NCBI GenBank assembly: GCA_008632985.1
Contig: QPGO01000020.1
Span: 248,001-312,000, forward strand
Source: Psammoneis japonica
Lineage: Eukaryota
Direction of reading: 5' to 3'
DNA length: 64,000 nucleotides
Shown here: positions 5,455 to 48,419 of the stretch, in pieces
How the letters are laid out: the number at the start of each line of letters is the position of its first letter
Position numbering within the stretch: the first letter of the stretch is position 1
Made by a program: the position numbers and the translations under genes
The notes under the pieces: generated by a model
Databases searched by the model: none
The model's input: only the letters and a program-made list of their open reading frames with translations
Told to the model about the DNA's origin: nothing

Positions 5455-5799
5455 GAATGCTTTATACAGTTTCGGTTAAACAATATATTATTTTTGGCGA
5501 TCGGACATTTTGATAAGAAGATTGTGGTACGACACCCTCGCACGTTTCTACGATAAATCCGCAATCACAAAAATCAAACCTTGCTTGCCACGCCAAAATC
5601 TCAGCACCCTAAAGACCACACACAATTCACGATGCTTTCAAAATCAATCACATCCACGATGTAACAATAAACCATGAGATGCAATCACTCCACCCGCACC
5701 ATTCCAATGGAAGCCATGGGCCGAGCTCGAATGACATAGAAGACTTCCGAGGGGAGGAAAAGAAGCCGGCCGCCAACCGAAGCGGAGCTCGAACGTGAC

Positions 5800-8700
5800 A
5801 CGCAGCTTTCGAGAATCGGAAGCCTTCCGAAACGTCTCCAATGGCAGCCGCTCATTCAGGTGACTGCCACTCCAAATGAACATGAAACCTCCAATGTGCG
5901 TTTGCTTGACGAGTCGACGGAATCGACTGCCTTGGGACCACACACACCATCCGAAGGCATTTTGAGACCGTCACGTTTGCCAGTTTTGCCGGAGCTTTCT
6001 GGATGGTTGCCAATTTGCATGTGTTCAGATGAATCAAGGCTCCTCCAGTGTTGCAGCCAGTGCTCGCAGCGCAATCACTTCGCAAGTGTCATGCAACGGA
6101 TTGCCGGCCAGTCTTCGAATGAATGCCTCTTTGTCGATGAGTGCTCGGGTGACAAGAGAAAATGTCCAAACAACAGGGAGTGCAATTCTCGGAAGCGCTG
6201 TCGCACATCCACTGTCATGTTGTTCCCAGTCTTGAGGAGAGCAATGACCATGGAGAAAATCATCTTTCTTCCATGTCGAGTCGCGTGTGTCAAAACCTCC
6301 ATTTCAAGTCCATTCGTGCTCCAAGGAAAAGTCGAATGAACATTCACTCCAAACCCGATCATTCCTTGTACTTTATGGAATGCTTTGCGGCACAGGAATC
6401 TTCAGATGGACGTTTCATAGACAAGTTTTCTGGCATGACAAGAAAGTCCTCGAACCGAATGCTGCGTCCTCGGAAACGACGCCCAGTCATGCGTGACGAA
6501 ACTGACGTGAGTGATTGCCTTGGACTCAGTTCCAGTCCTGAGAGGGGAAGTCAGAGAGCAAGTGTTTTTTGTCTTTCCCGACATGTTTCATCCAACATCC
6601 ATTTGCGATTGACCAAAACTGTGCTGCTGCTTTTGCTCTGCGATCACAGCATGTGCCTGAGCAGTCCATTCAACACGAGGCATCTGCCATCGCACCTGCC
6701 ACTGCGAGAAAGATTCCTTCTGACGCGCGATGACGTTCATTTCAGATGAGGATCAAGAGGCAACGGCACCCAAAGTGGTCTCTGTGTTGCAAGATGCTCC
6801 TTCCAACTCCAATGCATTTGTTTCAAATCAGCACAATGAGATGTGTGGACAACCACCAGAAGAGGATCATGCAACTGTTTCCGTCCCAGACGATCCCACC
6901 CACGAAATGGCATCAGCCGTGGCACCTTTGGTGCAAGAGGCTCATTCCAATGACAAAACTTCTGTTCCAAATCAATGCATTGGTGTGGTTGAAGGACACG
7001 CACAAGCACGAGAATCCCTCATTGCGGACACCAGTGCCTCTGTCATTCCCATCATTGTTCCAAGGCGGTCCACTCGGATGGGAAGTGGTTCGTTGAACGA
7101 CAATGCCATTCAGGAGAGGGCGTTGGCCGTGGTGCTTTTGGCACAAGAGACTTCTTCCAATGACGATGCTTGCATTTGCGCAGTTGAATCGTTGGTGGAA
7201 GAACGGGCGGGAGAAGAACGCGTGCAAGTGCAAGAATCCCTCATTGCGGACACCAGTGCTGCTGTGGCTCCCATCGTTGTTCCAAAGTGGTCCCCTCTGT
7301 TGGGCAATGGTTCATTCAACAACCATGAGACGGTGTTGGCCGTGGTGCCCTTGGTGCAAGAGGCTCCATCAAACGATGACACTTCTGTTCCAAATCAACG
7401 CAATGGCTTTGCTGAAGCATTGGCAGAGGAACAGGTGGCAGCAGAAGGCATCCAAGTGCATGCATCCCTCATTGCGGATGCTGGTGCTTCTGTCATTCCA
7501 AGGCGGTCTGTTCGGCTTGGGGAAGCTCTTGGCAGTGTGCATCTTCTTGCCGCAGATGGGTGAACTGTTCGAAGGTCGGCCAGAATCTTGAACCGTCGGG
7601 GAAGAGTCGTGCAGCAGTTTGAGTGCTTTTGGGAGTTTAGAAATGCATGGGAAGAGAAAGGAGCGGGAGTCAGAGAGAGAAACATGGAATGGAGAGAGGA
7701 GCGGAGCTCAGAGAGAGAGATGGGGATTGAAGTGTTCAGAAAGGAGAAAGCATCGATTTGCAAGGGTCCCAGAGAGATCAAGAAAGGAAGAAAATGAATT
7801 CAGGGAAATGGCGAGGCAAGGAAAAGATTGAGATTGGCAAGGACTTGGGCAGTGACACTCACACTTGCTTTTGTCTGCTTCAGCGGTTTCAAATGGAAAG
7901 ATTGAGTGTGTCGGAGAGTTGTCTGACCACATTGTGGCTTCGTGAGTGTGAGTGATCAAGGTCCTGTTGCTTTCGTGTGTGACGATCGGCAAGTTGCGGG
8001 TGAGCAGCGTCATTCTGTCGAGCAGAGAATCTTCGTGGTGCCTGCAGTTCGGCACATGCCATGTGCAGCACGTGGCACCTTTACATTCAACATCACGGAT
8101 TCAGCTTTGAGGCATTGAAAACTTGACGACAGACTCAACATTCCATTTTGGACCGGAAAGCACCATCAGCCGTGGACATGTGGCACTTGGAGTGTGATCG
8201 GATCCAGCCTCATTTCTGCAATGAAGCACTTGATGATTTTTAACACCTTTGCCAGTCGGAAAGTTTTCTGTTGGGGTTTTACACAAAACAGCTGGTGTGA
8301 TTGTGTTAGATTCATTTGGCATGCATGCAAACAGTTGTGAAGCCACAAGTTCAGATGCACATTGAAAGCGAGCACGTGCCTTGACGCTCGTTCGCCATCA
8401 TTGTTTTTGACCTTGTCAAATTGAAAACAGTGCTCGACTGTGGCATTCCATCAGTTGATGGTCGATCTTGTTGACCGGTGCCTGTGATCGCATGCGCTGG
8501 AAAAAGTGTCTTCACATCATTCTTCACAGACCCGAAAGCAGGAGCTTCGCATTTTAAAGGTGCAAAAAGAAGCAGCAAAACAAGCGCAACCAGAACCCTG
8601 CTTTTTGGAAGCACCGATTAAGCAAAACGATGCATGATCACTCACAGAAAAATTGAGTTGGAAATGTACATGCGAAAGAGCCATTGGCATTTGACACAGA

Positions 8701-9450
8701 GAGGAGAAATCAAAATCCTTTTTGTCTCGCATTTCAAATGGATCTTTGACAAGAAATGCGAACTTTTCTCCTTGCTGGGTCCCGGTGGCAACACTTGTGC
8801 CGAGAAACGACCAAAAAGAAAGCAGGATTAGAACCCAAGTACAGTGCAAGCTCAGCACCTCTCTAAATGTGCTGAACAACAGCAGAAATGCCTCAACAAG
8901 CGGCTGGGGCCCTGGAAAATGCCAGCGCAAATCGGCGCTGATTTCCTTCGTGCTTGACTGACTCGGCATGGTCTTTGTTAAGAGAGCCGAATGGCAGACA
9001 CAGCTGGGAATGTCATCGTTGATGGCACATGGCTTGACAAACCATGGAACAAATGTTTTGCATGCTTGACTTTTGACAAGACCTTGCTGCGGTGAAGCAA
9101 GTGGCTGACTCTCCACGCGCATCCTGAAGCTGCAAAACAAACCTGTCGTCCTCAACGAGACAGTGCAACTGACTGTGCACATCCCATTAAAAGTCCGCAG
9201 CCGCAATGTTGCCTGTGCACTGTGTGTGAGAACTCTGGATGAAATGCAACAAACTGGAGCACCTCATTCCCCCGCCAACGTTGATGCAAAAAACTGTGCC
9301 GCTGCTCCTTCTCGCTTGTTGTGGAGAGGCAGAAGGCAGAAGGACAGAATGAATGCTTGCACTCTCAACTCACTCCCTGTTTGTCCAGACACTGCACAGG
9401 ATGAGAGATGCTGGATCCAATGCAGCGCCTGCTCTTCAAGTGCTTGTTAG
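5800..9450. other. TpA-depleted block A (CpG largely retained)
   Basis: Hand count for 6721-7320: 0 TA, about 27 CG. ORFs in the block have almost no Tyr. Confidence 0.9.
6730..7600 (+). pseudogene. Mutated member of an acidic Ala/Val/Pro-repeat protein family ending in RRSxRL...GSVxLL...GRxVRRSARI
   Basis: Three internal repeats (VxPLVQEAxSNDxTSVPNQ...ESLIADTSA). C-terminus RRSVRLGEALGSVHLLAADG*TVRRSARILNRR matches the end of the 58896..60110 ORF; the TGA at 7561 sits where Arg (CGA) is expected. Confidence 0.7.
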
Positions 9451-16636: not shown

Positions 16637-19600
16637 CGTGCTTGACCCAAGAGATACTGTAGACAGAACAGGTTAGCATGAGTAATGATATTATGATGAT
16701 GCCTGCTTGCTTGTGACTGAATTTTCATGGCGGTGAAGCACGAGAGGCGAATAACTCGACTGGACTCAACCGGTCCCGATTTTTTTACAACGTTGCGGCG
16801 GTAAGTTCGTTCTATACTTTCTCATTTTATGCGCCTTTTATATGCTCTCTAAAGATGTTGTTTGTGCTTTGGTACAGCTTGAAAGGTGGCTTGATCATCT
16901 TGTAGTCTACAGTCTTCGGTCGATTATCGCTTCTGTGATATTGGCATCGTTTGCACCCCCAAAGCGCTCCCATTAAGGAGCCTTTCACTCGCTCCCACTC
17001 AACGACCTTTGGTCGAAAATTTCATGATACATTACTGATCTCGTGATGCTCTTGATTTGCTTCTCAGGGTCTTGGTCGGCTCGTTATGACGGCGTGTCGT
17101 TTTTCGGCCGTCACAATTTCTCAAAAGTGTATGCCATCCGAATGAAACGATGCGATGGAGCCTCGAGGACACTAATGATGTTGATATTTGTCAGAGAGAC
17201 TTACCATAGGTCAAAGAAGATGCCCCTATGAGCATGTCGTGATTGATTGAGTCTTACAGTCGTTTTGACGAAACTCACCTACCTCACGAGCCTTTTTTTT
17301 GTGTGTGCCGTTCATGCATGCAGGTATCTGGTCTTTATTGACCTTTTCTTCTTACTCTGCATCCGTATTATCTTTGCTATCTAGGACACGATATCGCTCA
17401 TGCTATTTTGGGAGATCTTGGTAGTTACACTACCAGTCTAAGCTTTGCATTGGGCACAATGGAGAGGTGGAGGCTTGTTTTGCCGCGCTCCTCGCCTCCT
17501 CTTGGATGAGCGGATGCCACGAACCGCTCGTGGTGCTTGGGGCCATGAAACTTGGTATGGCAACTCAGAAATACCTCTGGAAGGTGTGAGTATACTGTGA
17601 TTTGTGTCCTCAGTGGCTTTTTAGTGTGTACGTCGTTCCACTCAGATTTGCATTTTGCCTGGTATTTTGCCAGCACGATATCTGTGGCTGCGAGTGCTTA
17701 CAGCGGCCTTTCCGGGCCATTGTTCTACATGACATTAGTCCTTTGATATTCTTTGTTCATTTGGGGAAATCAAATCCTGAAACTTTCAGTATCTAGTCGG
17801 GTCTAGGCTAGAGAGGTAAGAGTAATAATGGATGAAATGTGGACCAGGTCATGGAAGGAGTTTGGGCTAACGTGCTGCTTCTTTTCGACGGTGGAGCGAG
17901 TATGTATAAGTAAGTCGAGCAAATGTGTCAGTGCAAGAGTATGTTCGTGCAGATGGACGACTCTCTCTAGAGAGGGCTACTACTCAAGAGTGCTACTACG
18001 CAAAGTAGAACTTGGCACAGAGGTAAGAGAACCATTTATGGATTTCGACCCCGTTGACGACGAAAAGTTGGATAATCCCTTTTTTAAAACGACTTGTGGC
18101 AATTGATATTCTTTAGAGGTATGGTTGTGTAGCTCTTAGTATTCTAGTTTTCTTTGAGGGTAGGATTGTATCGCGTGTCCTTCCGGAAGAAGTCGCTTGC
18201 GTCGTCATTACGTTGTTGCGCGTTAATGCATCCATCGCGCCCCGCGGCGGCGCCAGTTAGTCTCTAGTTATTCGAGCGAGCGCAAGTTCATTCACACGCC
18301 ACAATCGTTTGACGCTTCACCTTCTCATGCATTTTAAAACAAGAATGGGCTGAATGGGTGGAAATTCCATTCAGAAACATGCAATGCACCCTCACCACAT
18401 ACACACAGCCTCTCTCCCTTTATGTTGCTCTTTCAAAAACTCGGCCGTGCTGCCTTGGTGTGTGCACAAAAAGAACAAAGGGAGAAGACCATGCCAAGCG
18501 AATGACTCTGTGAGAACAACAAGTTGCTGCACATCTGAATTGGCAACTCAGTGTCACTGTGTGCCATGATGCTCCCACAGGCTTGTCAGCAGCTTGTCTC
18601 CTGCTGCTCCACATGTTTTGACCAATTTGTCAAAGAGGGTGTGCAGCCACACACTGCACCCTGTGCATTTTTTGCAGCTTGGGATTGAACCATTTGCACA
18701 TGTCTTTTTTGCTTTAGAAAGACAATCTCCAGATGCTTTGTGTCAAGCTCAGAAATGATCACACCTGCCATCACTGGAGACTTCTTGATTGGAGCAGACA
18801 TCTGCCAAATCCCCCCCCCCCCAAGTCGTGGTGAGAGAGTTCTCTTGCTGTTCCTTCCTTGTGAAAGACAAGAGAGGGCTGCACACAAAAATGAACCACT
18901 GAACACATGTGTCCATGCATCTTTCATGGTCAGACTTGTGGCAACAAAGCTCTAGATTGGCTGTTTGAGCTGTGCATTTTTGTGAATTGCTGCTGGAGTT
19001 GTTGAGCAAAAGAGTTCAAAAAGGACAACATGATGTGGCATGACTTTGGTTTTGACACACATGCTCCTGTGGGGTGGGGTGGGAGGCATGAGGGTGAGGA
19101 TTTGCACATGGCAAGAGTGCAAGACATGTCTGACGCAAGCAAATTGGATCAACAAATGAGACTTTAGTTGATGACAGCTCCACAAAACTCTGTGCTTTCT
19201 GCAATGCTCAGACAAAGGGATGAAAAGGTGGCATGATGGGAGTGTGCACAATTGATGTCATCATGCAAAGAACTTGGTCTGGTGCAAGCACCCAGAAAAC
19301 AGTCCAAGTTCACAACAGGCTCAGAGCCGAGTCCCTTCACTTTGCTGCTCCAGCTCCATCATCTGGTGCAAGAGAGGCAGGGGATGCATGCTGGAAACAT
19401 GGCAGAACTGCGCACTGTGACATCATCAACCTGAGAGAGCTGACTCAGATCATTCATTTGCCTTAATCAACAAAAGACATGTTTCAAAAAAAGCTTGCAA
19501 ATGGAGACAGAACCACTGAGGTTGTGCTGTTGCTGCTCCCAACAGCCCCCAGGTCAATGGAGCACATGGGAGAAGCCAGTCTTTGACTTTGCCCATTTGA

Positions 19601-20089
19601 GGTTTGGCGGGGCTGTGACTTTTCAGCACTTGCTCAGCCCTCCAGAAGCAAGAATTTTCATTTTCTTGTGGAGCAACTCAAGAAGGCTTGTTTCATGTGG
19701 CATGCACAGATGGTTTTTGTTGCAATGAAAGAGACTGGCTTCAACAAGTGTCTCTCTTGCAGAAGACCTGAAGCTCAAGACCACCCACTTCACAATGCTC
19801 TTCCAACCCAAAAAATGAGTTGCACAGGCCAAAACAAGGAGAGAGACCATCCTTCTCAGTCTGGGTCTAAACCATTTGTGGCGTTTGACTCTCTCATTCC
19901 TGCTCACATCATGTTGCTTGAAAACAAAATGATGCATTTCAGAATCAGCTTGACAACTTGCAGTGCATCCAGCGCAAGGTGCAGGCTTGACCCAATTCAC
20001 TCTCTGGACACATTCAGTCATCACTCTGACATGACAAGGAAACCCTGGTGGCATGCACTGAAACCCCAAAGGAGAAAGGGAGCCAGACA

Positions 20090-23000
20090 CAGTGATGGAC
20101 AACCAGTCTTCACAGATGTCATAGAGGATCATCCCCACAAGTCCATCTCTTGCTTCATGCCACCACACATGAAAGCAGTTGCAAGATCCACTGCATTGCA
20201 TTCAAATGAATGTGTCCAGTGAGTGACTCACCCATTGCCACCAGCTCCCTCACAGCATGGCAAAAAACAGAGTTCAACTTCTTCTTCAAAGCAGAGTCTG
20301 GACTTTGTGTGTTGTGGACAACTGACACGTTGTCCCCACAGACACAGGATGGAATGGACAGCAATGCACACCCATCATCCTTAATTTGTGTTGCAAGCCA
20401 TGCAATGACTCCACGCCTTGCTTCATGGCTGTGAACTTGGATCCAAAAACCAAGGTTTCAATTGTGCTTTGTGGCACTTAGACCACACTGCCAATGCCGT
20501 GTTCATGCAGATGAAATGGTTGGCACGTGAGCGCCTCATCAACTTGTCATTGGTTTGATCCAAGTCAATGAACAAGTGCAGATCTGCCTCCAAGCCTGGA
20601 GGTTCTGGCACATTGGGTGGGACCACTTCATGCAAGTCCCCACAAAATGACTTCCAATCACATTCCTTGAAGTCAGACATGTCAATGTCTGGACATGTTG
20701 GGTCAAACACCAACCTGGCATCATGTCTCACCTTGGGGCATCCACAGACATGGAAAGCATCCTCAAAATGACCCTCCCTGGGCATGGCAAGAAATGAGAC
20801 AAGCTCAGAAACCTCCATTGTCAGATCAAGGCATCCAAGTTCCACCATCCATTGCAGGACACCTGCCTGTGTCCTCTGGTGGAACTGGGCATCTTCTGCT
20901 TCAAGCTCAGGTGACACACCTAACTCAGGACAACAATCCCATGGAAACAGAGCTGATCCCAAGTGTGGCAATGTCCATCCAGGGCAGCATTCATCCAGAT
21001 GTGCCTCTGCATTCTTGACAGCCTGCTGGATGCACTTGCTGGAGCTCATGCCCCAAGCACAGATGCCATTTGGCATTTGCACCTCTTGGATTGTGGCACC
21101 CAGATGCATCTCAGGGTTGCCTGTTGAACCAGGCTTCATCTTGAAGCAATGATCCAATTCCTTGAGTGTGCTCTCATGGCATTGTGGTGTGCCATCAGTG
21201 CATCATCCACACGCAGTGGTGCATGTGCACAGCACCACCAAAACCCATCCTCCAGTCAGACCACTTCTTTGAGCCATGCTTGGGAAGAGCCAGGCAAGGC
21301 TTCCACCCAAGATGGTGCACGCAGGAGGCCAAGTGATTCCTGAAGGCTGTGCCTGCGCTCTTCAAGCCACAAAGCATGTGTTTGACTGTTGCACGTCTCC
21401 CTGCACAATGTCTGAACTCTGGGCCTGGAGCCACAGTGATCTTCTCACTGTCAGGTGCAGCAATGCAAGCATTTTCAATGTCAGCTGCCTCAACCTCTGA
21501 GTCATTCAGAGCAGCTAGAGTGAAGGCGCAATCCTCACACTCTCAGGTGACACAATGCTTGCATGCATCAGGGTTGCAGGCACATCAGGCAGTGGTGTGT
21601 CCACCAGCTGCACAGTGTGCCTTGTGCTTGAAGTCTTGCAGCTTTACATCAAGAAAGACCAAGTGACATTTGACATGCTGGCATCCTGCCAGCTTCTTGT
21701 CATTGTCAATGACCTTGAATGCCTTGTCAACAACACCCATCTCCTTGTCTGTGGCATCTTGCCACAGGTGATTGCTGCTCACCTGGTCAATCTTGACTGC
21801 CTCATTGCACGTCTTGGGAGTGCGTGTCCCACACTTGTGCATCCATTTTTGATGCCACTTGTTCACTGCAGCAATGATCTGATGCCATTTCTTAAGGTGT
21901 GAGGAACCCACCATGCAAAGGCTGGTTCACCCTTGATCAACTGGGCTCTGGCACACTCAGCCAACTCAACCAGGTTGGATTCCTTCAAGTCTGCAAGGTG
22001 TTCCCATGTCATGGTTCCACCCTTCCAGCAAATGCAAAGGTGCCATCCTTTGGTTGTCTTGCGCATGGTCTGGCATCCTCCACTGTCCTTTGAAAAAGTG
22101 CCATCCTTCTGGACTGCATGCCAGTCAGTCTTGTGATCAACAACAGCAAGTGCTGGTTGCCTTCATTGTGGCATTGTGTGAACATGTTCTTAGCTGTGAG
22201 CAACACAACTGTGGAGCACAGGGTTCAGTCTGCTTGGCATGGCAGTCAGCCTCCCTGGTCTTCTTGCTGAACTGACCCAGCATCTGCTCCTTTGCCCCAT
22301 CTATGATCATTGTGTGGGGTGCGCCATCTTGTGCAAGAAAGAGCAAGGACAGAGCTTCATGTGCTGATCCTTCAGATCTCAGGGGGACAAGCCCAAGCCC
22401 AACCATTGGACATGACAAAGACTTGCACACAGGTGTCACCCCTTCTCAACTTGGTCAAGGAGATTGAGGTGTTGGAGCACATCTTCTCTGCAATGCACCT
22501 GCATCACAACTGTTGGTCGTTGGTCCCAAACCTCTGAGATGACATCAGATGGAGGACCATTTGTGTGCCACGCTGAGTTGTGACCTTGACAGTGTTCTCA
22601 GTTCTCAGCATCCTTGACACTGACAGACCAGTTCTTGGCCAAACATTCTGCATCAATGTGCAGCTCCTGCTTCATTGTTTTGAGCAAAGAGAGACTGATC
22701 AAGACCAGCAGCATGCAGTTGTTGCATGCATGCAAGATGTCTTGAAGCAGCTGATTCACCAGGCAGTCTGTCTCTTGTGCTGCAGTGCACAAGAGCTTTG
22801 TGCTCATGATGTGGATCTGAGGATGTGCGTCACCCCCGGTCTCAGGCATGTGACCAAGAGAGTCCGTCATGGAATCCTCTCTGGTTTGAAAGTTGGCAGT
22901 TTGTGGGTCCCATTCCAGGGACTTGCAAGTGAGTTCTGCTGCAGTGCCATCTTGTGCAGCTGCTTCACACTCTGCAGCAGTGGGTTTGGAGGTGGGGAAG

Positions 23001-24935
23001 CAACTGGTGAAACCATCCAATTCTAACAGAATCATGAGCTCACCCCCATTGGCATCTGTCAATGTCCGTCGCCACATGTGACTTGCTGTCAGGCTTTGTC
23101 AGCAGGAATTTTGGTTGCAGATTAACTCCCGTGCCATTCAGCCACAACTGCATGGGACACAAAAGGTTGTGTTTGAGGTGCGGGACATGCACTGCCTGGT
23201 GGACTGCCACCAGGATGCATTGGTGGCCCAAGGCAGGGTTCGTGTTTGTGACGGCTCCGCTTGCAGCACACAGACTCTTGCTGGTGCCCTTTTTTGGGTT
23301 GCAACCTGTGACATCTGCTGGACGGTCATGGTCAAGCACAATTAAAGCATGCTCACCCAGTGCGCTCATGTCTGCATGACTGTCTAATTCAGCACAAGCT
23401 TCAGTGCACATGGCTTCCCTCATGGTTGTTTGGGTCATGCACAGGGTCCAAAGTGGACTGACTGAGACACATGGCCAAAGAGGGCAATTCTTCCTTTTCC
23501 TTCCTGCTGGGTTTAAGGTTGCCATTCTTGTCATGCTTCTTGTTGGCCACCGTGTCTTTCAGCAACTGAAAGTTGGAGCAGCTGCACTTCTGCTTGATGG
23601 CAAGCCACTTTGTGGTTTCTTTGGACTCACCAGCAGTGTTGTCCTGGTGGTCCTCAATGTGAGCACTGATGGCTGCAACCACACTGGTGAGGGCCTTGAT
23701 CTGCTTCATGTTTTTGGCCGCAGATGTCGTGTCTTGGCCACTGCGAGCATGTCACATGTAAACTTGAGCTTCTTTCATGCTTTTGGGGACATTTGTTTGC
23801 ACTCCTTGTTGGGGCAGTGCTTGCCCTTGATGATGCCTTTCTCATGAATGACATCATTGCATTGGCACTTGAGTGGCAATGCAAAGCTTCTTGTTTTTGT
23901 TGTCCAGCTTTGACTGCTTGATGAAGTTTTTGTGTGAGACAACACACCCATCAAAGTTGCTGCGCCACAATCTGTGCCTTGATGGAGTCAAGGGACGTGT
24001 CCTTGATGCTCTCCAGAAGGTGGCATTCCTTGGAGCATTGGTCAACTCCAGCACAGACACACTCCTTGAGGCCCTCAATGACAGAGTGCTGTTCAACATG
24101 AACATGCAATGGGCACTCAAAGTTCCAGTTTTGGTGTTTGCCGTGGCAGGAAAGACCTGCTGAGTGCTTTTTTGCCACATCAGCCATGTTGTCTATGTTG
24201 TTTGGACCCAAGAAGTGATTGCACAGGTTCAAGTGGGCTGTCCTGTTATCCTGGTTGCACTGAGCCTTCTTGACACATGCCCAACACAAATGTTCCCATG
24301 TGATTCCAGCAATGATCTCCCAAACCTTGAAGCTGTTGGTGGCAAACATTTCAGTGGGTTGCAGGCTGGCCCCAGCAGCGATGTGGGGGGGGGCACGGGC
24401 AATCATCTCAGCACAAGCATCAGCATGGTTGTTGGTGTCATTGTCTGCCTCCGGCACAACCGCCTGATTTTCTTGGACCACGCAGGCTGGGGGCATGTCA
24501 ATCTCCCCACGACAAGTGCAAAGATGTGCGCGCGCAGCTTCCATCATCTTTGGCCAGTCCTTCTTGATGACAGCAGGCAGGGTGCAAGGGTTCTGTGGAA
24601 GGTTTCTGCTGCACAAAGGTGGTGGCACCCCCTGACATGGTTGTGAGTGACATCGGTGGCATGCAACGTGTGTGAGACACGCTGATGGTGACAAGCCATG
24701 AAAGCTGCAAGCTTGAGATTAATCTCATCCCGCAGTGATGCAACAGTCCCCAGGCTGGGTTGTGGATTTGCTCCACCACCCCATTGTTGCACAAGGTCTT
24801 GATCTTGTGGTCATCAAGATGATGCAGTTCTTTGATGGTGTCAATTCCCTGGTTGGCGGCAAGGGCCACTGACACTTCATTTGTGAAGCGGGGTTTGTGG
24901 TGTGCAGCATGCATGGCTGCAACATGAGCTGCCAT
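20090..24935 (-). mobile_element. Degenerate Ty1/Copia (diatom CoDi-like) LTR retrotransposon: gag - protease - integrase (partly deleted) - RT - RNase H
   Basis: gag-like LCNHFLGPNNIDNMA (~24200); protease ELDSHAD (~23380); integrase IIDGAKEQ/KQTEP (~22270); TWEHLADLKESN..ELAE..AFAWWVPHTL; RT AAGGH, LCGLKSAG, xVDD (~21205); RNase H IETLVFGSKFTAMK. Copia domain order, many stops and frameshifts. LTRs not identified. Confidence 0.93.
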
Positions 24936-25460
24936 GGTTGATGGTGTGGTGGTTCATTGATGACAAAACTCTCTTTCACATGAGGCTGAGTTGTGTGGTT
25001 CTCATTCGAAAAGTCAGCAAGTTGTGTGAAGTTCACATTGCTTTTTCATCATCACAGACTGGGTGATTCTGCAAGTTTGTCTGAACAATGTGTCTGCAAT
25101 GAGACTTGCGTGACCACAAACCAACTTTGTTCCTGCAATCTGCCTGACCGATGCTGATGGTGAGTGCAAATTAGCAACAAATGAATGTTGTGCTGTGTGC
25201 AAATCTACATGCGATGTTGTCACCCAGCAATTTCAAAATTGCTTGTGCATTTGCCTCTGCACCATCTGTGAATTTTAATTGCTTCACATGTTTGCATTTG
25301 CTCAACGGACAAATGACATTGTGTGTGCTTGGATTTCTGAATGTTTTGTTCCCAAACATCAACTCTCTGCTTCTCACCAAAATTGCCAATTAAATCGTGA
25401 AACCTCAATGGAAAAGTGGTTGGTTCCAGAATTTGTTGAGCAAAAGGAAGTCAAAACACA

Positions 25461-25755
25461 AGTTAACAAAAGCCAACACAAGCAAACAAAAATCAACATC
25501 AGTCAACACCAGTTGACAAATGTCACTTTGAGTCAACACGAGTCAATGGCAAAAGCACAGAAATGTCTCTGCAGACAAAGCAACAGTCTTGCACCTCACT
25601 CACCAACAGCCCCCCATGACAAATGTTGCAGATGCAAACAGTTTTGCATGGGCACCATGCACATTTGACTGGGCAGAGTCAACATGAGTCAATGCAAGTC
25701 AAACAAGTCAACAAAAGTCAATGCAAGTCAACACAAGTCATCAAAAGTCAACACA
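25461..25755. repeat. Two short arrays of a 10-bp unit AGTCAANNNN (25461-25546 and 25677-25755)
   Basis: Units such as agtcaacatg, agtcaatgca, agtcaacaca, agtcaacacg and agtcaacaaa in 10-bp register. Confidence 0.8.
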
Positions 25756-26488
25756 ACTCTGTGTGCTTGAGCAAAAGCATTCAAATTTACTCACGACTTA
25801 ATTTGTTCAACACTTCACATCACAAATGAAATTTGTGCAAGATGTTTCTTGGCAAGTGAACAAGGCCAAATTCAATGGTCATCCGTCAAATGAAAATTGC
25901 CAATTCATCCATTGAAATTTGAAATTCACACATGATGCAAGACTGAATCAACGAAATGTGCGGACAGTGCCAAGACAACTTTGGAATGGAAATGGCACCC
26001 CAAGAAATCCACAGATTGTGCTCTGCTGTGTTTGTGCATGTGTCCCTCAAAATGCATCAGAGCAGATGATGCCACAGTCATCAATGAGCATTTAAACTTG
26101 TGCTGATCCTGGGAGCACAAAACTTGTTGAGCACGAATGCTTCTTGCATTTGCAGATGTTTTCCAGTTGTCCCTGACTTTTGTGGAATGTTCTGTGGCAT
26201 CATGAATCATTCACAAGCAGAGGTGACACTCAGACTCATTGTTTTGCATGGCAGTGGCTCCAACAAAGTGAACAAATTACCCTGCAGTCATGCGCACTGG
26301 GGACTGGACTAAAAGAAAGCTTGCAACATCGTGCCTGTTTTCCAGAAGTGAGATCTAAACCTGAGGAACCGCTCTGTGCTCAACCGCCACTGACAAAGCA
26401 CACAAAACTCACACAAAACCAACTCGAGTTTATCACATGGCAAATTCTTCATGCCAAGGGCAAAAATCTTGAAAATCATGATGAAGTG

Positions 26489-26515
26489 ACAACAACAACA
26501 ACAACAACAACAACA
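26489..26515. repeat. (ACA)9 microsatellite
   Basis: Direct reading. Confidence 0.95.
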
Positions 26516-27411
26516 GAAGCACTTCAAAATGGCTGTTGCAGAGTGCTTGCACAGCCAAGAAGCAAGCCAACAACAAGCTCAGCACACTTTGGCTAGATTG
26601 ACTTGCACTTGGACTTGGCAGTGGCAAAGAAATGGCGTTTTGTCTTGGATTGGAGACCCAGTGATGGGGACGACCAAATCAAATGAACAGCAACTTTTGA
26701 AAACCTCTGACGATGACTGGCAAAAGTGCAAAAAGACCTTGGCTGGCTTTGTCAGCTCCTGGAAACCCCAAGAGAGAGAAGGGCCATGAACATTGCAATT
26801 GCAGCCACTTTGAGATCTTGCAGCAAGATGCAACAGCCAACCCAAAGAGTGGAAAAGCACAGTCTCTTGGGTTCTTGCAATGAATCGTGTGTGTGGCCGG
26901 CAGCAGCTGAGTTTTTGTGGTGCTGGCTGAGCATGATGACAACATTCACAAAAAGGACAGAGGACAGCACAATGACAAAATGACAGCAACAACTGTTTGT
27001 GTCACTTTTGCCATCAAAGGAATTGTGAATGCTCAAATGGATGTGCCTCTAAAAGCAGGTTCCCGCTGTCCCCATTGGTGCAAACATGTTGCAGCAGCAG
27101 AGGAGCACTGCACAGAGAGTCACATTTTTGTGACCAAAATCACAAACATCATTTGGGGGCTGCATTTTGCCATGTGATGTTGGGCTGAACAATTGGCGTG
27201 TGTTTCATCGAGATCAACGAGAAATGTCATGGTCGCAGTTGAACAACTTCAGTTGCTTTTTGCCAACAGAAAAGCGGATGCGCTCTCGCGCACAGAGGAC
27301 GCGGACGGACGCGGGTGAGAAGCGCCGATGGATAGATGAGTCCTCACTTTTTTTTCTGACTCATCCCTCATCTCCCTCACTATGGAGTGACGACTAGCAC
27401 AATGTGAACTG

Positions 27412-29106: not shown

Positions 29107-29560
29107 GTGGCGTCTAGATTAAAATGTGTGCAAGTAGAACTTGTTTGTACAGAGAAGCCTACAAAGGACCCAGGCGGCTGTTGTAGCCATTTGTGTCGAA
29201 AAAACATGGCACCAGATTGCGGCAAAGCACATTGTCTAAACCTTCCTGTTCGCCTGGAGAGGAACCGATCTTCACTCCACCCGGAGAATGCTGTTCTGTC
29301 TGTAACCCTCCAATCAATTGCGACTCGCCGTGTGCGGAGCCTCCGTTCGAAAGTTCTCGTAAAGAGGCCTGACCGGTGGTCTGCCACGTGCTAGAAGAAA
29401 TGCGTAGATGAGAAACCATGTGAAAAGCCAGATTACAGCAGAGCACCTTGTATCAAACCTCACTGTTTGCCTGGAGAGGTGCTCTTCACACTGCCTTGTG
29501 AATGTTGTTCAGTCTGTGTCCCTCCAAGCAATTGTGCCTCTCACTGTGTGCAGGCCTTGG
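29107..29560 (+). pseudogene. Cys-rich repeat (VWC-like PGECCxVC) gene fragment with frameshifts and stops
   Basis: Repeat 1 KPSCSPGEEPIFTPPGECCSVCNPPINC; repeat 2 KPHCLPGEVLFTLPCECCSVCVPPSNC. Confidence 0.6.
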
Positions 29561-32261
29561 TTTGTGGCTGAAGTGGGTGCAGTTGGTTTTAAGAGGCATG
29601 ATTGTGCTGCTGTGCCACATGAGGGAAGGGGTGCCTTGTCAATTCATTTGCAAAGTGACTGCTGCTGTGCCTTGCCACATGCATGTTGTTTCTTTTCCAG
29701 AGGAAGCAAATTTGAGCTGATTTTCTTCCACAAGAAAACACCGAAAGGTCCCAGAGTTGTTGTTGCTTGAGGTGTTGATTCATCCTCAAGAGAAGACATT
29801 TGCAGGCCAAAAGGAGACTCTTTCAAAGATGACAAGCAGAGACACCACCACTTTGTGATCACATTGAAATCATGAGTTTGTCAAAAAGAGGTGTGGTGTT
29901 AACAGCATGCAAATGACCATGTGATCACATGAGATCCAGTCTGTCATGTTGGCATTTGGCAAGGAAGCAAGAAGCAGCATTCCTCACCTGCTCAAGAACA
30001 AGAAAGGAGTTTGGCTCAGCTTGTCACAGCTCAACATGTGAACAAGGTCAGGGCCTGACCATTGCATGCAGAGTTGTCATTGTCTGGTTTGTGAGTTCAA
30101 GCTTGTTCTTGGATTTTGTCAACGAACCAGCAGCAACCAACTTTTACAACAAGTTGCAGGGTGGACTGCTTGTGTGGCAACATTGAAAGCCTTGCCTTTT
30201 AAATGCTCAGCATTGACTCCAGATTCTTGCTCGAGCACCAGTGGCAAGCATCTGTCAGAGAGCAAACTCCTTTTTTGTCATCAAGACACATTTTTGGTGC
30301 ACTTGGCAATGCTGGGAAGCAGCAGCCAACAAGCTCTGGATGTGTTGCGCCTCAGACCTTTTGGCTCTGTGCAGATCCCCAAATGTTTGTCTCAGTGTTG
30401 CATTCCAGGTGGCACAGCTGCAATCATTTTTGACAAGTTGCTGGATTTTCGATTCTGCACCTGCATTGTCTTCATTCTGGGAAAAGCATTTGGTGAAAGT
30501 CAAACACCAAATGACATTTGAGGTGGATCAATGACCAAAGCTTGAGCTGGTGTGCAAGGTTGAGTGGACACAGAACAACAAGCTGGACACCTTTGAACCC
30601 TCAATGGGCTGTGCATGACATCTCTCCTGAGGACAACGTTGCCAAAGATGCTGGTGGCAGCAGAAGTGTGGAGTCAGCAGCACACTCACATGTGTGTGCC
30701 ACACACATTGTTTCACAGCAAACTCTTTGCTCAAGGGTGGGCTTGACCCTTGGAAGATTTTGACACTGGCACAGCTGATCATTTGTGCAAAAATCCTCAC
30801 CCAACTGTGGTGGGCTTGAAGACAGCACCATGCCTTGATCATCATTGCACTGGTGATGCAAACACTCAGATGAAACCATGGGTGCTGCTCTGGTGCATCA
30901 AGAAAGACTTTTTGAAATTTGAAAGTGCCACATCTTCCTCACCTCTTTCAACTCAAAACAGCTCACTTGGTTGGTGGATAAAATCTTGGAAAACCACAAG
31001 GTGCTTTCAGCTTGCAGTGGACTTGTTTCCACCAGGATGATCATCCAAGGAAACTTGACACATGCCACTGCTGCTTCCTTGTTGCAATCACATCATGGCA
31101 AGGTGAAAGTTGTTCTTGTCAAATCCACCAACTGCAACAACACTGGCACAAACACATCCCGTGCCACGGCATCAAAACCAAGATTTGCTCATGCAAGATG
31201 CTTGGTGCCAGTCAAACCCAACATTTGTCATCAAAACAAGGACAGAAACAAGCCATGCAAGTTGATTCACTTCATCTTGACCATGACAACAGCACTGCCC
31301 ACAGCAATGTTTGTTGGCCTCCCTTGGCTGAGAATGCTGCTGGCCACCCCAATGAGTTCTTGCTGTGTGGCCAAAGTCAGCCTTCTTGTTCTCCAAGCAA
31401 TGGCTGCAACTTGAGCTGTTTTCCATGATCTCATCACCAACAAGAACAATCCATGACTGCAACACTTCCAAACAACAAAAGGAATGAGCTGAGTGCTGTG
31501 CTCCACAGAAAACGAGATCTCTCTCTGCTTGAATTGCCTGAGCTGTTGAGCTTGGAGAAGACAACAAATGTGCTGATGATGCAGAAACAAGTGCAATTTG
31601 AAGCAGCAGCTTCACAAGAGGTGTGGTTTCATGCCATCCATCAAAGAATGAGAAATGAGTTCTCTTGGTCATCTGTGCACTGGTCAATGGGCAGGCCAGA
31701 CAGGCTTTTTCTTTTTGCACTCATTTCTTGCTTTGGACAGCATTGAAAGCACAGACTGCAAGAAAAATGCCTGCCTTGAATCTTCCAAAAAAAGAGTCAA
31801 AGACACTTTACTGCAGCACCAGCATTGAGCTTTGTCGTGGTGATCACTCCACAGCAGAGCACAGATTGGAGTTTGTGTGGGCAAGCTGTGCCATGAGCAA
31901 CAATGGCGCAATGACACAACCCTTTTTTCTTGCACACATGTCTTTGGTGAGGTCATGTTTGCTGCTTTGAATGCTGAGCAGCAATGTCCTGTCCACACTG
32001 TCTCATTGTGGCAGCATGGGTGGTTGGACCACTTCTGCAGCCCTCCCAAGTGACCATGGATGACCACATTGATTTTGTGTTTGACACAGGTGTTTTTTGC
32101 ATTTGAATCATGTGGTCATTGTTCAAACATCTTTTTCTCCTCATTTCAGTTTTGCACTGAAATCTGTCCATTTAAATGCAAAATGACAGTGATCAGCCTG
32201 GGGCAGCAGACTTGCCAGATGTTGATGTGGGTGATGCTGCTGGTGCACCAAACAGCTGCAT

Positions 32262-32669
32262 TGAAGCCCAGTTGATCCTGAGAAACAACAGGCCAAGGCT
32301 GTGGAAGACACCTGGCAGAAGTTAAACAAGGGCAAAGTCATTTCCAAAATTGGTCCTCTGTGCAGCTCTGGAACTCTGTGGAGTTTGGTCTGTTGCCAGT
32401 TTGTGTCAACATGATTTGTTGGGATGAACAAGAAGAAGGCCAGTGTCCACATCCTAAATGACACAACTGAAGCCCAGTTGATCCTGAAAAACAACAGGCC
32501 AAGGCTGTGGAAGACACCTGGCAGAAGTTAAACAAGGGCAAAGTCATTTCCAAAATTGGTCCTCTGTGCAGCTCTGGAACTCTGTGGAGTTTGGTCTGTT
32601 GCCAGTTTGTGTCAACATGATTTGTTGGGATGAACAAGAAGGCCAGTGTCCACATCCTAAATGACACAA
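32262..32669. repeat. Near-perfect tandem duplication, 206-bp unit (32262-32467, 32468-32669)
   Basis: Copies differ by about one substitution and one AAG unit. Confidence 0.95.
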
Positions 32670-35569: not shown

Positions 35570-36150
35570 ATGTCTTCTCATGGATCAGGTCTTGAGAGAA
35601 GACTGAAGCCATCAGATCAGCCAATTCAACCTGGACAGACAGAGCAATGGACAGAGCATCGGGCTGGTGCAGCAGGGGCCAGATTTGGGGTGACTGAGTT
35701 CATTGACTGTCCTTTCCCATGTGAGCTTTTCAGTCCGCTCAGCCCCCCGGGAGCTTGGTGCTTGGACAAATGCAATCAATGGGTTGCGTGCGGCTGATGG
35801 CGGTGATGGACCAGAGTCCCAGTGTGATGGGATCGCAGGACCCGCTCAGGGATTGCAGGCACCACGGACGCTTCATGTGCCATCTCCTGGACGACCCCAA
35901 TGATTTTGAGTCCCCAATCACAGCTTTGAACAACACTGGCAGCATTCGAATCATTGGATTGGATGCAGGTGGTGGCAATGAGCTTGATGATCTAGTTGAT
36001 GCAACAGGAGGAACGATCGCACCCCAGCTCGGACGGGAGTGGAACATTTGCTGTTGCTGTTGGGTGCAGAGACTTGGTTGCATCTGTTGAGCCAAGCTGT
36101 TTGAGTGTGAAGGAAGTCCAGTTTGCCTCAAATGGAGTGGTTGTTGGAGG
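35570..36150 (+). pseudogene. von Willebrand A (integrin-beta-like) domain gene relic
   Basis: ARFGVTEFID..., WTNAINGLRAADGGDGPESQCDGI (family motif GGDxPESQYDA), ALNNTGSIRIIGLDAGGGNELDDLVDATGG, spread over several frames. Confidence 0.7.
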
Positions 36151-36217
36151 TCATGCGGTGATGACATCTGATTTTGTGCACGGAACTGTCATTTGTCCGT
36201 TTGTGGTTGACACCACA

Positions 36218-36521
36218 TGCTCGTGCCAAACACACAGTGTTGTTTCTACAGTGGAGACTCCAAGTCGAGTAAAACGAGCAAAAACGACCAAGTTGTTGGT
36301 GGCACATCGTCTCAAATGCTTGGCATTTTACTCATCTTACTCATCCTCCTTCCAGAAAATAAGTGGCTGTTCTCTAACACTGTGTGCTCATGCCAAACAT
36401 GTGTGTGGCATTTGTTCTACAGTGGAGACTCCAAGTCGAGTAAAACGAGCAAAAACGACCAAGTTGTCGGTGGCGTCTAGCATCAATGCTTGGCATTTTA
36501 CTCATCCTCCTTCCAGAAAAT
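36218..36521. repeat. Diverged direct duplication (~140 bp; 36218-36360 and 36385-36521)
   Basis: Shared core TTCTACAGTGGAGACTCCAAGTCGAGTAAAACGAGCAAAAACGACCAAGTTGT; differences include CG/TG and CG/CA pairs. Confidence 0.9.
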
Positions 36522-48000: not shown

Positions 48001-48419
48001 TTTGTTTCCTTCTGCCGAAAAGACAAACAGTTTGCAAGGATCAGTGAAGCAGAACGGGGGATGATGATTCATGAGAAACGGGGGTAGAACGTGCGTAAAG
48101 TACCTGAATCTCTTTAGATCTCTAGGGGAACGGTGAATTGCATCACTCTCAGCAACGCAACAACAACGTAAGAAAAGTAACGAGAAGTTGTGAACGAGAT
48201 ACTGCTAGACTTTACGGCACCGTACTCTATCTACCAGTAGTAGGTCGAAGTGACGCCATGGCGCATGCATACACCGCATAGCGGGCCGACTGACGACTGA
48301 CGACGGCGCGCAGACGTGACCTGCACGCGCACGACGCGCGGACGCACAAAAAATCATTTCGGTCACTGTCTGGGGTCAGTCTGGGGGAGAAAACAGCCCC
48401 TTGGGCGCGCCACAAACAT

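Follow-up and report, generated by a model that had tools for sequence, protein, structure and literature searches.

TpA-poor islands in the window

This locus raises the question of whether TpA can be lost from DNA separately from CpG and, if so, by what process. The whole stretch of DNA analysed (hereafter the window) is 64 kb long, and the 34,504 bp outside the affected blocks, with 42.4 TA and 56.5 CG per kb, served as the background. Four TpA-erased islands of 3.6-10 kb each, together about 26 of the 64 kb, were found. The observed/expected ratio (o/e) of TpA in them is 0.03-0.14, and those of TG and CA are 1.45-1.9. The GC content, taken per kb, is 0.41-0.52 inside the blocks and about 0.48 in the whole window. 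The blocks are as follows (no strand assigned).

5738..9447: block A; TpA erased, most CpG kept; multi-copy in the genome
6418..7638 (1,220 bp): longest TA-free run of block A; includes 6721-7320
18300..27300: block B; TpA and CpG erased, both edges sharp
29455..35700: block C core; TpA and CpG erased
35701..39650: C2, adjoining C; TpA erased, CpG mostly kept; relics of host-type genes
48282..51900: block D; TpA erased throughout, CpG erased in the core only (about 48600-51300)

The o/e values of these segments are the following.

Block A: TA 0.08, CG 0.66
35.7-39.7 kb (C2): TA 0.14, CG 0.63
Block B: TA 0.06, CG 0.17
C core: TA 0.04, CG 0.08
D core: TA 0.03, CG 0.11
Background: TA 0.57-0.66, CG 0.96-1.0

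The sequence-only reading of this DNA had reported that 6721-7320 in block A holds no TA and about 27 CG, that 35.7-39.7 kb resembles it, and that the cores of blocks B and C are poor in both dinucleotides. All three descriptions are borne out by the values above and by an exact recount of the 600 bp, which gave 0 TA and 27 CG together with 58 TG and 62 CA. At the background rate about 25 TA would be expected there (P(0) ~9e-12), where the expected counts, here and below, were taken from the window's own background and the original composition of the blocks may have differed. Positions 5800-9450 contain 17 TA and 152 CG, and positions 35700-39700 contain 36 TA and 158 CG. Block D includes a TA-free run at 48279-49685, and its flanks (48300-48600 and 51300-51900) have 0 TA with 22, 11 and 16 CG per 300 bp, at or near background. 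As a rough composition control, we used 804 kb of mostly bacterial-like metagenomic loci from a scan with a helicase alignment; among 1,491 1-kb windows of this unmatched set, which includes no diatom relatives, none combined a TA o/e below 0.15 with TG and CA o/e above 1.4.

Contigs of a public sequencing run (X1) match the block sequences with 0-5 differences per 0.8-6 kb; this run may come from the window's own source sample, so the agreement is not independent support. The summed contig depth at 80% likeness or more is 279-550 across 5668-9002 in block A, as against about 51-56 in the single-copy neighbours. In block B it is about 510-630 across 19675-23676 and falls to 326 and then 242 farther on, up to 25000. 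The flank of block B at 18341-19674, however, has a depth of 56, i.e. it is single-copy at this likeness, yet it is as heavily mutated. The process thus does not seem to be limited to detectably repeated DNA.

The contents of the blocks were searched for known domains. Pfam searches of 148 open reading frames of at least 80 amino acids, plus a few frames of block A, gave PIG-U and LRR only, apart from a few weak matches below the family cut-offs. Six-frame read-through of A, B and D gave no Pfam domain, and no match was found on any of the C core frames of at least 80 amino acids; no viral or transposon domain appeared in these searches in any block. A protein atlas gave no usable match for one block A frame and the longest block D frame (recognition of about 990, in the shuffled range). 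A word search in the purine/pyrimidine alphabet found no similarity between blocks, and a blastn self-comparison of the window found local tandem pairs only. As to the host, the best named relatives of a helicase were diatoms, at 45-50% identity, and a search with an aldo-keto reductase found no close relative.

Conversion of TpA and CpG to TpG and CpA

The summed frequency of TA, CG, TG and CA is 236.7-248.9 per kb in every block, as against 240.3 per kb in the background. Since this sum is constant at about 240 per kb, TA and CG became TG or CA and were not natively absent. The loss of TA and CG is matched by the gain of TG and CA in block A (52.6 vs 49.0 per kb) and in C (92.2 vs 93.1 per kb), and AA, GA, AG and GG are unchanged, as are the other dinucleotides containing A or T. 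In B, C and D, TG (108.5-115.4 per kb) and CA (119.5-122.5 per kb) are roughly equal, and the mass balance holds. Some trinucleotide balances are off: TAT, of which 10.7 per kb is lost in block A, is only about half regained as TGT and CAT. Among paralogous contigs of run X1 matched at 80% likeness or more, transitions were found at 1,540 places and transversions at 499.

Direct evidence for the conversion of TA comes from a relic gene in C2, beside which lies a second host-type frame.

37410..37904, plus strand: relic of PIG-U (a GPI transamidase subunit), C-terminal third; Pfam PF06728, E 3.2e-07
38258..39001, minus strand: open LRR frame of 248 amino acids without Tyr; Pfam LRR_14, E 1.8e-17

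A full HMMER scan with the relic found 60 homologues at E of 1e-3 or below, and tblastn with 23 full-length PIG-U homologues matched a single spot in the window, the relic itself; a word-indexed search gave no match, and the PDB gave a chance match only. In the frame read, the relic has 0 Tyr and three in-frame stops, one of which is a TGA at an Arg column. We defined Tyr columns as those with Tyr in at least 30% of 21 PIG-U homologues (n=9). In the relic all nine are now Cys or His codons (six TGC, two CAT and one CAC), which proves the conversion of TA directly. The LRR frame lies partly inside a 628-bp TA-free stretch (38647-39275).

Block A contains internal copies that can be compared with one another.

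6889..7545, plus strand: three units in tandem, each about 210-230 bp (U1 6889-7098, U2 7099-7311, U3 7312-7545)

Between these units, 21 of 30 adjacent double transitions exchange CA and TG. Of 26 three-way sites of the TA/CG/TG/CA family, 8 mix CA and TG and have no CG, and in 7 one or more of the units retain CG. At the CG-bearing three-way sites CG is retained in 12 of 21 cells, so that, by our estimate, CG could be the origin of no more than about one of the 8 mixtures. The differences between CA and TG indicate that mutation came after duplication, independently in each unit. The sequences ancestral to block A and C2 thus had TA, as the internal units and the PIG-U relic show. A search for an unmutated homologue of block A found none.

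A second tandem pair is cut by a block boundary.

29212..29553, plus strand: tandem pair of Cys-rich coding-like units straddling the left edge of C

Its left unit (29212-29339) is unmutated and its right unit (29428-29553) is mutated; the two are 75% identical. At the 14 CG of the left unit, the right unit carries TG in 8 cases and CA in 2; in the remaining 4 its letters are different ones or are shifted. A strand rule for CpG drawn from this pair was dropped, the 14 sites being too few and contradictory. A further tandem repeat at 58575-59814, 92-98% identical, is unaffected.

Sequence context of the changes

Surviving TA sites are strongly biased in context: 69 of 112 in the blocks are YTAR, as against 267 of 1,458 in the background. 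The altered base pair is the A of 5'-TAY-3' or, equivalently, the T of 5'-RTA-3' on the other strand. The preference for the 3' neighbour of the changed A is C first, then T and G, with A by far the worst. TTAA is mostly spared from TpA loss in B, C and D (22 observed, 27 expected; survival 0.81), although its survival runs the wrong way, from 0.38 in the lightly hit segments defined below (5 sites) to 0.81 in the heavily hit ones (22 sites). CpG loss has an exception as well, since GCGC is retained at 23 of 37 expected sites, as against 118 of 976 for all other CG.

Composition alone does not separate the products of TA from those of CG, and the rule for which strand is hit is based on the contrast between TGC and TGA together with the nine Tyr codons. 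In the segments that lost TpA only, TGC rises by 11.2 per kb while CGC falls by only 1.4 per kb, the conversion of TAC to TGC being the largest gain; TGA rises by 1.9 per kb despite losses of 6.2 per kb for TAA and 4.6 per kb for CGA. In the relic, the Tyr codons that follow a pyrimidine all became TGC (5/5), and those that follow a purine became His in three cases and Cys in one (n=4). The gains of YTGY and YCAY (558 vs 272, and 125 vs 40) were not made a basis of the rule, because their TA and CG origins are indivisible without an assumption.

TG and CA are equally enriched, i.e. both strands were affected. A runs test detected no strand runs: its z lies between -0.25 and -1.76 for the blocks, and between -1.68 and -2.46 for the background.

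Relationship between TpA loss and CpG loss

We divided the window into 160 windows of 400 bp. Normal values are found in 84 of these, low values of both TA and CG in 42, and borderline values in 11; the other 23 are low in TA with CG kept (14 with intermediate and 9 with normal CG). None is low in CG without being low in TA, and the highest TA o/e among the 42 is 0.14. CpG loss is thus nested inside TpA loss. The boundaries of the two coincide at three of eight edges, namely the two of B and the left one of C.

In order to compare the two losses, we expressed each as a dose (-ln survival) in a lightly hit set (A, C2 and the D flanks) and a heavily hit set (B, C and D). CpG survival is 0.75 in the former and 0.14 in the cores of the latter, and the dose rises 6.95-fold (95% 4.96-11.5). 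Survival of TAY-type sites is 0.085 and 0.031, respectively. The dose at YTAR, a TA site that is not saturated, rises only 1.35-fold (0.82-2.38), its survival being 0.43 and 0.32. The two losses are therefore not proportional. The somewhat higher survival of slow contexts in A and C2 fits a lower dose there, as would be expected if block A were a younger target, which the sequence-only reading had suggested; missing methylation over block A would yield the same picture.

These results bear on what had been proposed from the letters alone. The inference that CpG decay does not bring about TpA loss as a by-product is upheld, since TpA loss occurs without CpG loss in block A, at 35.7-39.7 kb and in the D flanks, and the reverse never occurs. 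The proposal that TpA erasure saturates earlier or spreads further than CpG decay also stands: it is saturated everywhere, and it covers the CpG-poor domain or more. The suggestion that A>G at CpA regenerates CpG finds no support and is rejected. The enrichment of CpA is the amount given by the mass balance, AA, GA, AG and GG do not change, and in B, C and D CpA stays at an o/e of 1.84-1.88 while CpG stays at 0.08-0.17.

Possible origin of the two losses

We consider it rather probable that two separate processes acted on the same set of silenced islands, probably in the genome of a diatom, one a hypermutation of TpA and the other a decay of CpG. The first would be a TpA-directed A:T>G:C hypermutation of DNA in place, turning TA into TG or CA, with the strands attacked site by site and a sharp-edged domain filled to saturation. 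We infer that this is enzymatic adenine deamination by a candidate deaminase, TadA/ADAT2-like or other. The second would be a slower decay of CpG to TpG or CpA, restricted to cores within the domains of the first and sparing GCGC. It may most simply be deamination of 5-methylcytosine where an island is methylated, and it probably depends on methylation. In block A and at 35.7-39.7 kb, the first process would have taken place and the second would have been slight. Both together may represent genome defence.

CpG loss is seen nowhere without TpA loss and shares three of eight edges with it, so a single agent would fit these facts too. In this alternative, one dual-specificity deaminase of the ADAT2 type, recruited to the islands, would be efficient on the A of TAY and poor on the C of CpG; CpG loss would be a late stage, and block A an earlier one. 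The absence of any window with low CG and a TA o/e above 0.14 (0/42) agrees with it, as do the slow TA contexts, which survive less where CpG is also depleted (CTAG 0.35 vs 0.13; CTAA/TTAG 0.52 vs 0.25). In the accessible text of one report, an amphioxus ADAT2 deaminates both C (in TCG) and A (in GAA) of DNA (PMC10354150). One dose variable cannot, however, yield a 6.95-fold rise at CG beside a 1.35-fold rise at YTAR, nor the D flanks, where TA is absent over 300-600 bp and CG is at or near background. In addition, the live mutations in the two hypermutable regions of Bigelowiella natans, as given in the accessible part of the preprint discussed below, include essentially no C>T. We therefore regard a single agent as unlikely.

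Another possibility concerns the base attacked. TA is self-complementary and TAY on one strand is RTA on the other, so the sequence cannot tell which base was altered; the T of RTA could be modified, for example by a TET/JBP-type enzyme to 5-hydroxymethyluracil, and be mispaired or misrepaired to C. Hydroxymethyluracil in dinoflagellates and base J in kinetoplastids do occur on T before A. We know, however, of no modification of T with near-complete conversion to C, and the 5' T and 3' C around the changed A resemble the U-A-C target of TadA-type adenine deaminases. An attack on thymine thus seems quite improbable.

Editing at the RNA level would require the blocks to be retroelements whose transcripts were hyper-edited from A to I by an ADAR-like enzyme and then reverse transcribed. 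Block A occurs in several copies, as does part of B, and A>G with a 5' U or T is given as the preference of ADAR in the accessible part of the B. natans preprint. In the window, however, the strands are equally affected without runs, a host gene relic and a single-copy flank are also changed, and the internal tandem units were mutated independently in place. No frame scanned contains a reverse transcriptase or integrase, and the 3' preference described above is unlike the 3' G of ADAR. RNA editing is accordingly a most improbable source of the blocks.

It is just as improbable that no mutation took place, i.e. that the blocks are foreign DNA natively free of TA and CG or an artefact that base calling or assembly produced on modified DNA. 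In favour of this are block edges as sharp as those of insertions, and the sole confirming run, which may be the source sample. The mass balance, the change of Tyr to Cys or His at 9/9 columns of a conserved eukaryotic gene, and the left edge of C, which splits a tandem pair with CG and TA kept in its outer unit, all speak against it, as do clean TG or CA calls, where an artefact should give mixed ones including TA and CG, and the agreement with the window of contigs from a run at about 51-56-fold word depth.

Returning to the two separate processes, we suggest, as a tentative possibility for the first, a diatom enzyme, guided by chromatin or homology, that would deaminate adenine at 5'-TAY-3' in duplex chromosomal DNA to saturation within sharp domains, independently of cytosine methylation.

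Comparison with known systems

The closest counterpart is the TpA-specific hypermutation of integrated viral DNA in the chlorarachniophyte B. natans (Mettrop et al., bioRxiv 10.64898/2026.01.13.699255). According to the accessible part of that preprint, 231 of 302 new mutations fell in two integrated viral regions, 230 of the 231 being A>G or T>C on TpA; 124 clusters are TpA-poor and rich in CpA and TpG; and the rate in hypermutable regions, in some lines only, is about 1000-fold above that of the rest of the genome. The islands described here share the almost exclusive A>G and T>C change at TpA, giving TpG and CpA, the discrete TpA-poor, CpA- and TpG-rich regions, many of the affected sequences lacking annotation, and the alteration of DNA in place, a single-copy region included.

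There are also differences. The host here is probably a diatom (stramenopile) and not a chlorarachniophyte. The erasure is saturated here, whereas the B. natans viral region has a Rho of 0.45 in the text accessible to us. Viral inserts are the targets in B. natans; here no viral or transposon domain was found, and the PIG-U relic and multi-copy DNA are affected. The TAY rule (C best, A worst) and the escape of TTAA are described here, and the words 'trinucleotide' and 'downstream' do not occur in the accessible preprint text; nor does that text mention CpG, the loss of which is nested in the islands here. The B. natans type of hypermutation is without an accompanying excess of G:C>A:T; the cores of B, C and D differ from it in this respect, and A, C2 and the D flanks largely agree. 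We read the CpG loss in B, C and D as a second process, set apart from a TpA process of the B. natans type. Finally, the rate in B. natans was measured in live lines, whereas the process here is known from sequence alone.

Repeat-induced point mutation (RIP), known from Neurospora and other fungi, likewise produces dense transitions on both strands in confined segments and ruins coding sequence, and block A is multi-copy, as is part of B. RIP, however, is C>T mainly at CpA (the C>T agrees with published abstracts), creates TpA and lowers GC. In the window TpA is destroyed, CpA is enriched, A:T becomes G:C, GC is kept, and a single-copy stretch is equally mutated. Deamination of 5-methylcytosine would account for the half of the pattern in the B, C and D cores that consists of CpG>TpG/CpA with roughly equal TG and CA. 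Unlike the genome-wide decay of CpG in vertebrates, CpG o/e of 0.08-0.17 here stands beside 1.0 within a few hundred bases, and the sparing of GCGC is also unlike CpG decay by this route. In diatoms, 5-methylcytosine marks repeats and silent genes (PMC12344493), and transposons of basidiomycetes undergo hypermutation targeted to TCG (PMC3318451), both according to the accessible portions of these reports.

Among adenine deaminases, a partial parallel to the proposed reaction would be the tRNA adenosine deaminases TadA and ADAT2-ADAT3, in that A>I is read as G, with T or U before and C after the target A. The natural target of TadA is the U-A-C-G anticodon loop, and laboratory adenine base editors are DNA-acting forms. 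To our knowledge, no natural enzyme erases TpA across kilobases of duplex DNA in a chromosome. Hyper-editing of double-stranded RNA from repeats by ADAR also changes A to G and prefers U before the edited A; its substrate is RNA, where the changes are clustered and lie on a single transcript strand, whereas DNA is changed here, symmetrically between strands, without runs and with a 3' pyrimidine preferred. The amphioxus enzyme BjADAT2 indicates that some ADAT2 proteins act on DNA, on both A and C, as far as the accessible text goes (PMC10354150), and its motifs, GAA and TCG, differ from the TAY found here.

Implications

Our literature search found targeted A:T>G:C hypermutation of chromosomal DNA described once, in the 2026 chlorarachniophyte preprint, and nothing else. 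The TpA signature of B. natans is seen again here, so the window adds, from a different lineage, another case to a very young kind. That this signature has gone to completion over kilobases of destroyed sequence, probably in a diatom, suggests that the process is widespread in marine algae. If the tentative diatom enzyme proposed above is real, TpA editing would, together with Bigelowiella, be an old genome-defence system in at least two branches of the SAR supergroup, and it would be a natural counterpart of the laboratory adenine base editors. An enzyme of natural origin able to edit adenine in duplex DNA would have practical use, and the 3'-neighbour rule, the escape of TTAA, the sharp domain edges and the strand symmetry are handles toward it. 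The natural separation of TpA from CpG loss makes a coupling of the TpA process to methylation directly testable with one methylation map.

The islands also matter for annotation. They conceal genes and transposons from homology searches, and they give rise to false open reading frames that are free of Tyr and rich in Cys and His. Run X2, from the same sample, skips introns of the GT..AG type in neighbouring genes; its cover is little or none over the greater part of blocks A and B, to which no weight is given.

TpA-erased blocks in the window

The erasure of TpA in the window is real and striking. The GC content is about 0.48 over the whole 64 kb, and outside four blocks (A to D) the observed/expected ratio (o/e) is 0.57-0.66 for TpA and 0.96-1.0 for CpG.

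Composition of the TpA-erased blocks (core: the part in which CpG is also lost)
Block A, about 5738-9447: TA o/e 0.08, CG o/e 0.66
Block B, about 18300-27300: TA o/e 0.06, CG o/e 0.17
Block C core, about 29455-35700: TA o/e 0.04, CG o/e 0.08
C2, the right extension of C, 35701-39650: TA o/e 0.14, CG o/e 0.63
Block D, 48282-51900: core TA o/e 0.03, core CG o/e 0.11

The core of block D is depleted in both dinucleotides, and its two flanks have no TA yet normal CG. The o/e of TG and CA is raised to 1.45-1.9 in all blocks, the remaining dinucleotides being little changed. The TpA edges are sharp, including those near 5738, 18300, 27300, 29455 and 48282: at 48.3 kb TA per 300 bp drops from 17 to 0, and at 27.3 kb it climbs from 1 to 20. 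The counts of the sequence-only reading for 6721-7320 (0 TA, 27 CG) were exact. A recount gave 17 TA and 152 CG for its 5800-9450 stretch, and 36 TA and 158 CG at 35700-39700, where it had noted a similar pattern. At the background of 42.4 TA per kb, a TA-free 600 bp has a P of ~9e-12; the TA-free run around 6721-7320 is 1,220 bp.

TpA loss and CpG loss

Among 160 windows of 400 bp, 42 were low in both dinucleotides, 23 were TpA-poor with intermediate or normal CpG, and none was CpG-poor without being TpA-poor. TpA and CpG loss share their boundary at both ends of B and on the left side of C. Elsewhere, at five edges, TpA loss extends 0.3-4 kb beyond CpG loss, and block A is without any CpG-poor core. 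Survival was compared between a lightly hit set (A, C2 and the D flanks) and a heavily hit set (B and the C and D cores), with dose taken as -ln survival and YTAR as the slow TA context. Expected counts were derived from 34.5 kb of local background in this one window.

Survival and dose ratio in the lightly and heavily hit sets
CpG: survival 0.75 (lightly hit) and 0.14 (heavily hit); dose ratio 6.95 (95% interval 4.96-11.5)
YTAR (unsaturated TA sites): survival 0.43 (lightly hit) and 0.32 (heavily hit); dose ratio 1.35 (95% interval 0.82-2.38)

Since the two intervals do not overlap, a single dose variable cannot fit both losses. The view that TpA loss is not a mere by-product of CpG decay was therefore right, as the TpA-only windows, the nesting and the unequal dose ratios indicate. 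That one dual-specificity deaminase produced both losses would suit the three coincident boundaries; set beside the separate dose ratios, it seems unlikely. The alternative offered in the same reading, regeneration of CpG by A>G at CpA, found no support: CpA is enriched to the extent expected from the balance, and its o/e in B, C and D is 1.84-1.88 while that of CpG is only 0.08-0.17.

GCGC was spared from CpG loss in the B, C and D cores (23 observed, 37 expected); all other CG in the same cores numbered 118 against 976 expected, a survival of ~0.12. This sparing could reflect a flank preference of a methyltransferase or of the deaminating step.

Sequence context and mechanism

Both strands are affected, as TG and CA rise equally. 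A runs test of YTGY against RCAR gave z values of -0.25 to -1.76 in the blocks and -1.68 to -2.46 in the background, with no extra clustering in the blocks. YTAR accounts for 69 of the 112 surviving TA, as compared with 267 of 1,458 in the background. Sites with TAY on at least one strand survive at 0.085 in the lightly hit set and 0.031 in the heavily hit set, and TTAA survives at 0.81 in B, C and D (22 observed, 27 expected). Taken alone, the pattern of survivors allows two readings, in which the changed A has either a 3' pyrimidine or a purine two bases upstream.

C2 contains what is left of a PIG-U gene, a relic of its C-terminal third that matches Pfam PF06728 and has 60 homologues by full HMMER scan. 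When 23 full-length PIG-U homologues were compared with the window by tblastn, the sole match was at 37323/37410-37904. The relic has no Tyr: all nine columns with at least 30% Tyr in 21 homologues are now Cys (TGC, 6) or His (CAT 2, CAC 1). Pyrimidine-preceded Tyr codons became TGC in 5 of 5 cases, and the four purine-preceded ones, which carry TAY on both strands, became three His and one Cys. In the TpA-only set (TpA lost, CpG largely kept), TGC gained 11.2 per kb with a CGC loss of only 1.4 per kb, whereas TGA gained 1.9 per kb despite losses of 6.2 TAA and 4.6 CGA per kb. This contrast and the outcomes of the Tyr codons settle the matter for the 3'-pyrimidine reading. The target thus read from the sequence is the A of 5'-TAY-3'; the best 3' neighbour is C and the worst is A. 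Since TA is its own complement, this base pair is equally the T of 5'-RTA-3', and the sequence cannot tell which base was chemically altered. An attack on thymine instead of adenine, with which this symmetry is compatible, is considered quite improbable.

In C2, 11 TA of the TAY type, normally sensitive, persist in 0.5 kb at 36247-36751, some of them in both members of a 90% identical tandem pair of 98 bp (36244-36341 and 36415-36511). This segment resembles an insertion or duplication of later date, or an escaped patch.

With moderate confidence, we favour two processes as the explanation of the observed conversions, their context and strand symmetry, their timing after duplication, the nesting and the lack of proportionality. 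The first would be an editing of chromosomal DNA, A:T>G:C at TAY, that is island-wide and saturating. The second would be a slower CpG decay confined to the cores, most simply caused by 5-methylcytosine deamination. The agent of the first process is presumably an adenine deaminase; TadA-type enzymes have a U-A-C-G target, to which the T-A-C context here is similar. ADAT2 enzymes acting on DNA have been reported (PMC10354150), and a deaminase-SAM-tudor family restricted to stramenopiles is predicted (PMC3239186). The CpG decay would depend on methylation, and the system may serve in defence. Diatom 5mC has been described as a mark of repeats and silent genes (PMC12344493).

Conversion of TA and CG

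Taken together, TA, CG, TG and CA number 240.3 per kb in the background; every block lies within 236.7-248.9 per kb, and per block the gain of TG and CA approximates the loss of TA and CG. TA and CG are converted, not natively missing. One of the in-frame stops of the PIG-U relic is TGA at an Arg column (CGA>TGA). Comparison of the window with contigs of the public run X1 (at least 80% likeness) gave transitions at 1,540 places and transversions at 499, X1 being the sole confirming run and possibly the source sample. Native composition or artefact, against which the dinucleotide sums stand, is very improbable, and so is editing at the RNA level.

Block A has three tandem units of ~210-230 bp each, between which CA<->TG makes up 21 of 30 adjacent double transitions, every other type occurring at most 3 times. 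Eight of the 26 three-way sites of the TA/CG/TG/CA family are CA/TG mixtures without CG. At 7 sites CG is kept in at least one unit, and 12 of the 21 cells are still CG; at that retention, we estimate that CG gave rise to about one of the 8 mixtures at most. Most of them were therefore formerly TA, and the units mutated independently after duplication.

The left edge of C falls between two units of a tandem pair:
29187-29553 (+): Cys-rich units encoding the motif …PGECCSVC…NC…C, with no Pfam match
The outer unit retains CG and TA; of its 14 CG, 8 are TG and 2 are CA in the inner unit, and 4 have other or shifted letters there.

Inside the fully mutated C core, 32262-32669 is a ~205-bp tandem duplication (98% identical). 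Since both copies have the same TG/CA states, it is later than most of the mutation.

Contents of the blocks

A, B and D gave no Pfam family in any frame, nor did the open reading frames of at least 80 aa in C. Two long block frames were scored as non-protein-like by a protein atlas. Copy number was measured as summed contig depth over 5-25 kb. Block A is multi-copy (279-550 over 5668-9002, against 51-56 in its neighbours), and the stretch of raised depth has about the same extent as the TpA-poor domain. Block B is multi-copy from 19675, at ~510-630 to 23676 and lower up to 25000, the end of the stretch measured. Its first 1.4 kb is single-copy at likeness of at least 80% and equally heavily mutated. 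Host-type gene remains lie in C2, namely the PIG-U relic and the first frame below.

38258-39001 (-): open 248-aa LRR frame with a good Pfam score and no Tyr, partly in a 628-bp TA-free stretch
58575-59814: ordinary-looking gene with 69-bp and ~700-bp internal repeats (86-98% identity) and normal TA and CG

Either the LRR family tolerates the changes or the hit was recent. The 58.6-59.8 kb tandem repeat (92-98% identical) is untouched, so short tandem repeats are not targets. Together with the mutated single-copy start of B and the host-type remains in C2, this means that the targets are not simply anything repeated, nor are they necessarily foreign DNA.

Comparison with known systems

The window is a further case of a type of system first described months ago in Bigelowiella natans (Mettrop et al., bioRxiv 10.64898/2026.01.13.699255). 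Mutation-accumulation lines of that species yielded 302 new nuclear point mutations, of which 231 lay in two integrated viral regions; 230 of these 231 are reported to be A>G or T>C located on TpA. Its genome has 124 TpA-poor clusters rich in CpA and TpG, and the authors propose an ADAT2-like DNA deaminase. The TpA signature described there is the same as that of the window. New in the window are a second, distant host lineage, the completeness of the erasure, and effects on multi-copy and host-derived sequence. Further additions are the 3'-neighbour rule with the TTAA escape and the nested but uncoupled CpG loss; the main text of the preprint never mentions CpG, trinucleotide, downstream, diatom or stramenopile. 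Full-text searches turned up no other report of the combined pattern. Fungal RIP was ruled out, its defining C>T, which creates TpA, being the opposite of the change in the window, and ADAR-type editing was ruled out as the identity of the process.

Genes around the blocks

The genes around the blocks are ordinary eukaryotic ones, including a plastid-type ClpS. The best named relatives of a neighbouring helicase are diatoms (45-50% identity), and the host is probably a diatom.

10516-14627 (+): Upf1-like helicase (AAA_11/AAA_12) adjoining block A; its C terminus weakly matches the REase_MTES_1575 endonuclease domain

Among the bacterial homologues of this family, some carry the source label 'very short patch repair endonuclease'. 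A T:G-mismatch-type nuclease next to a deamination island may be there by chance. The public run X2, labelled 'DNA?', is transcriptome-like, and its contigs cover the genes between A and B (9777-18085). These contigs (15988-16519 and 9777-18085) skip four stretches of 84-100 bp with CT..AC ends, that is, GT..AG on the minus strand.
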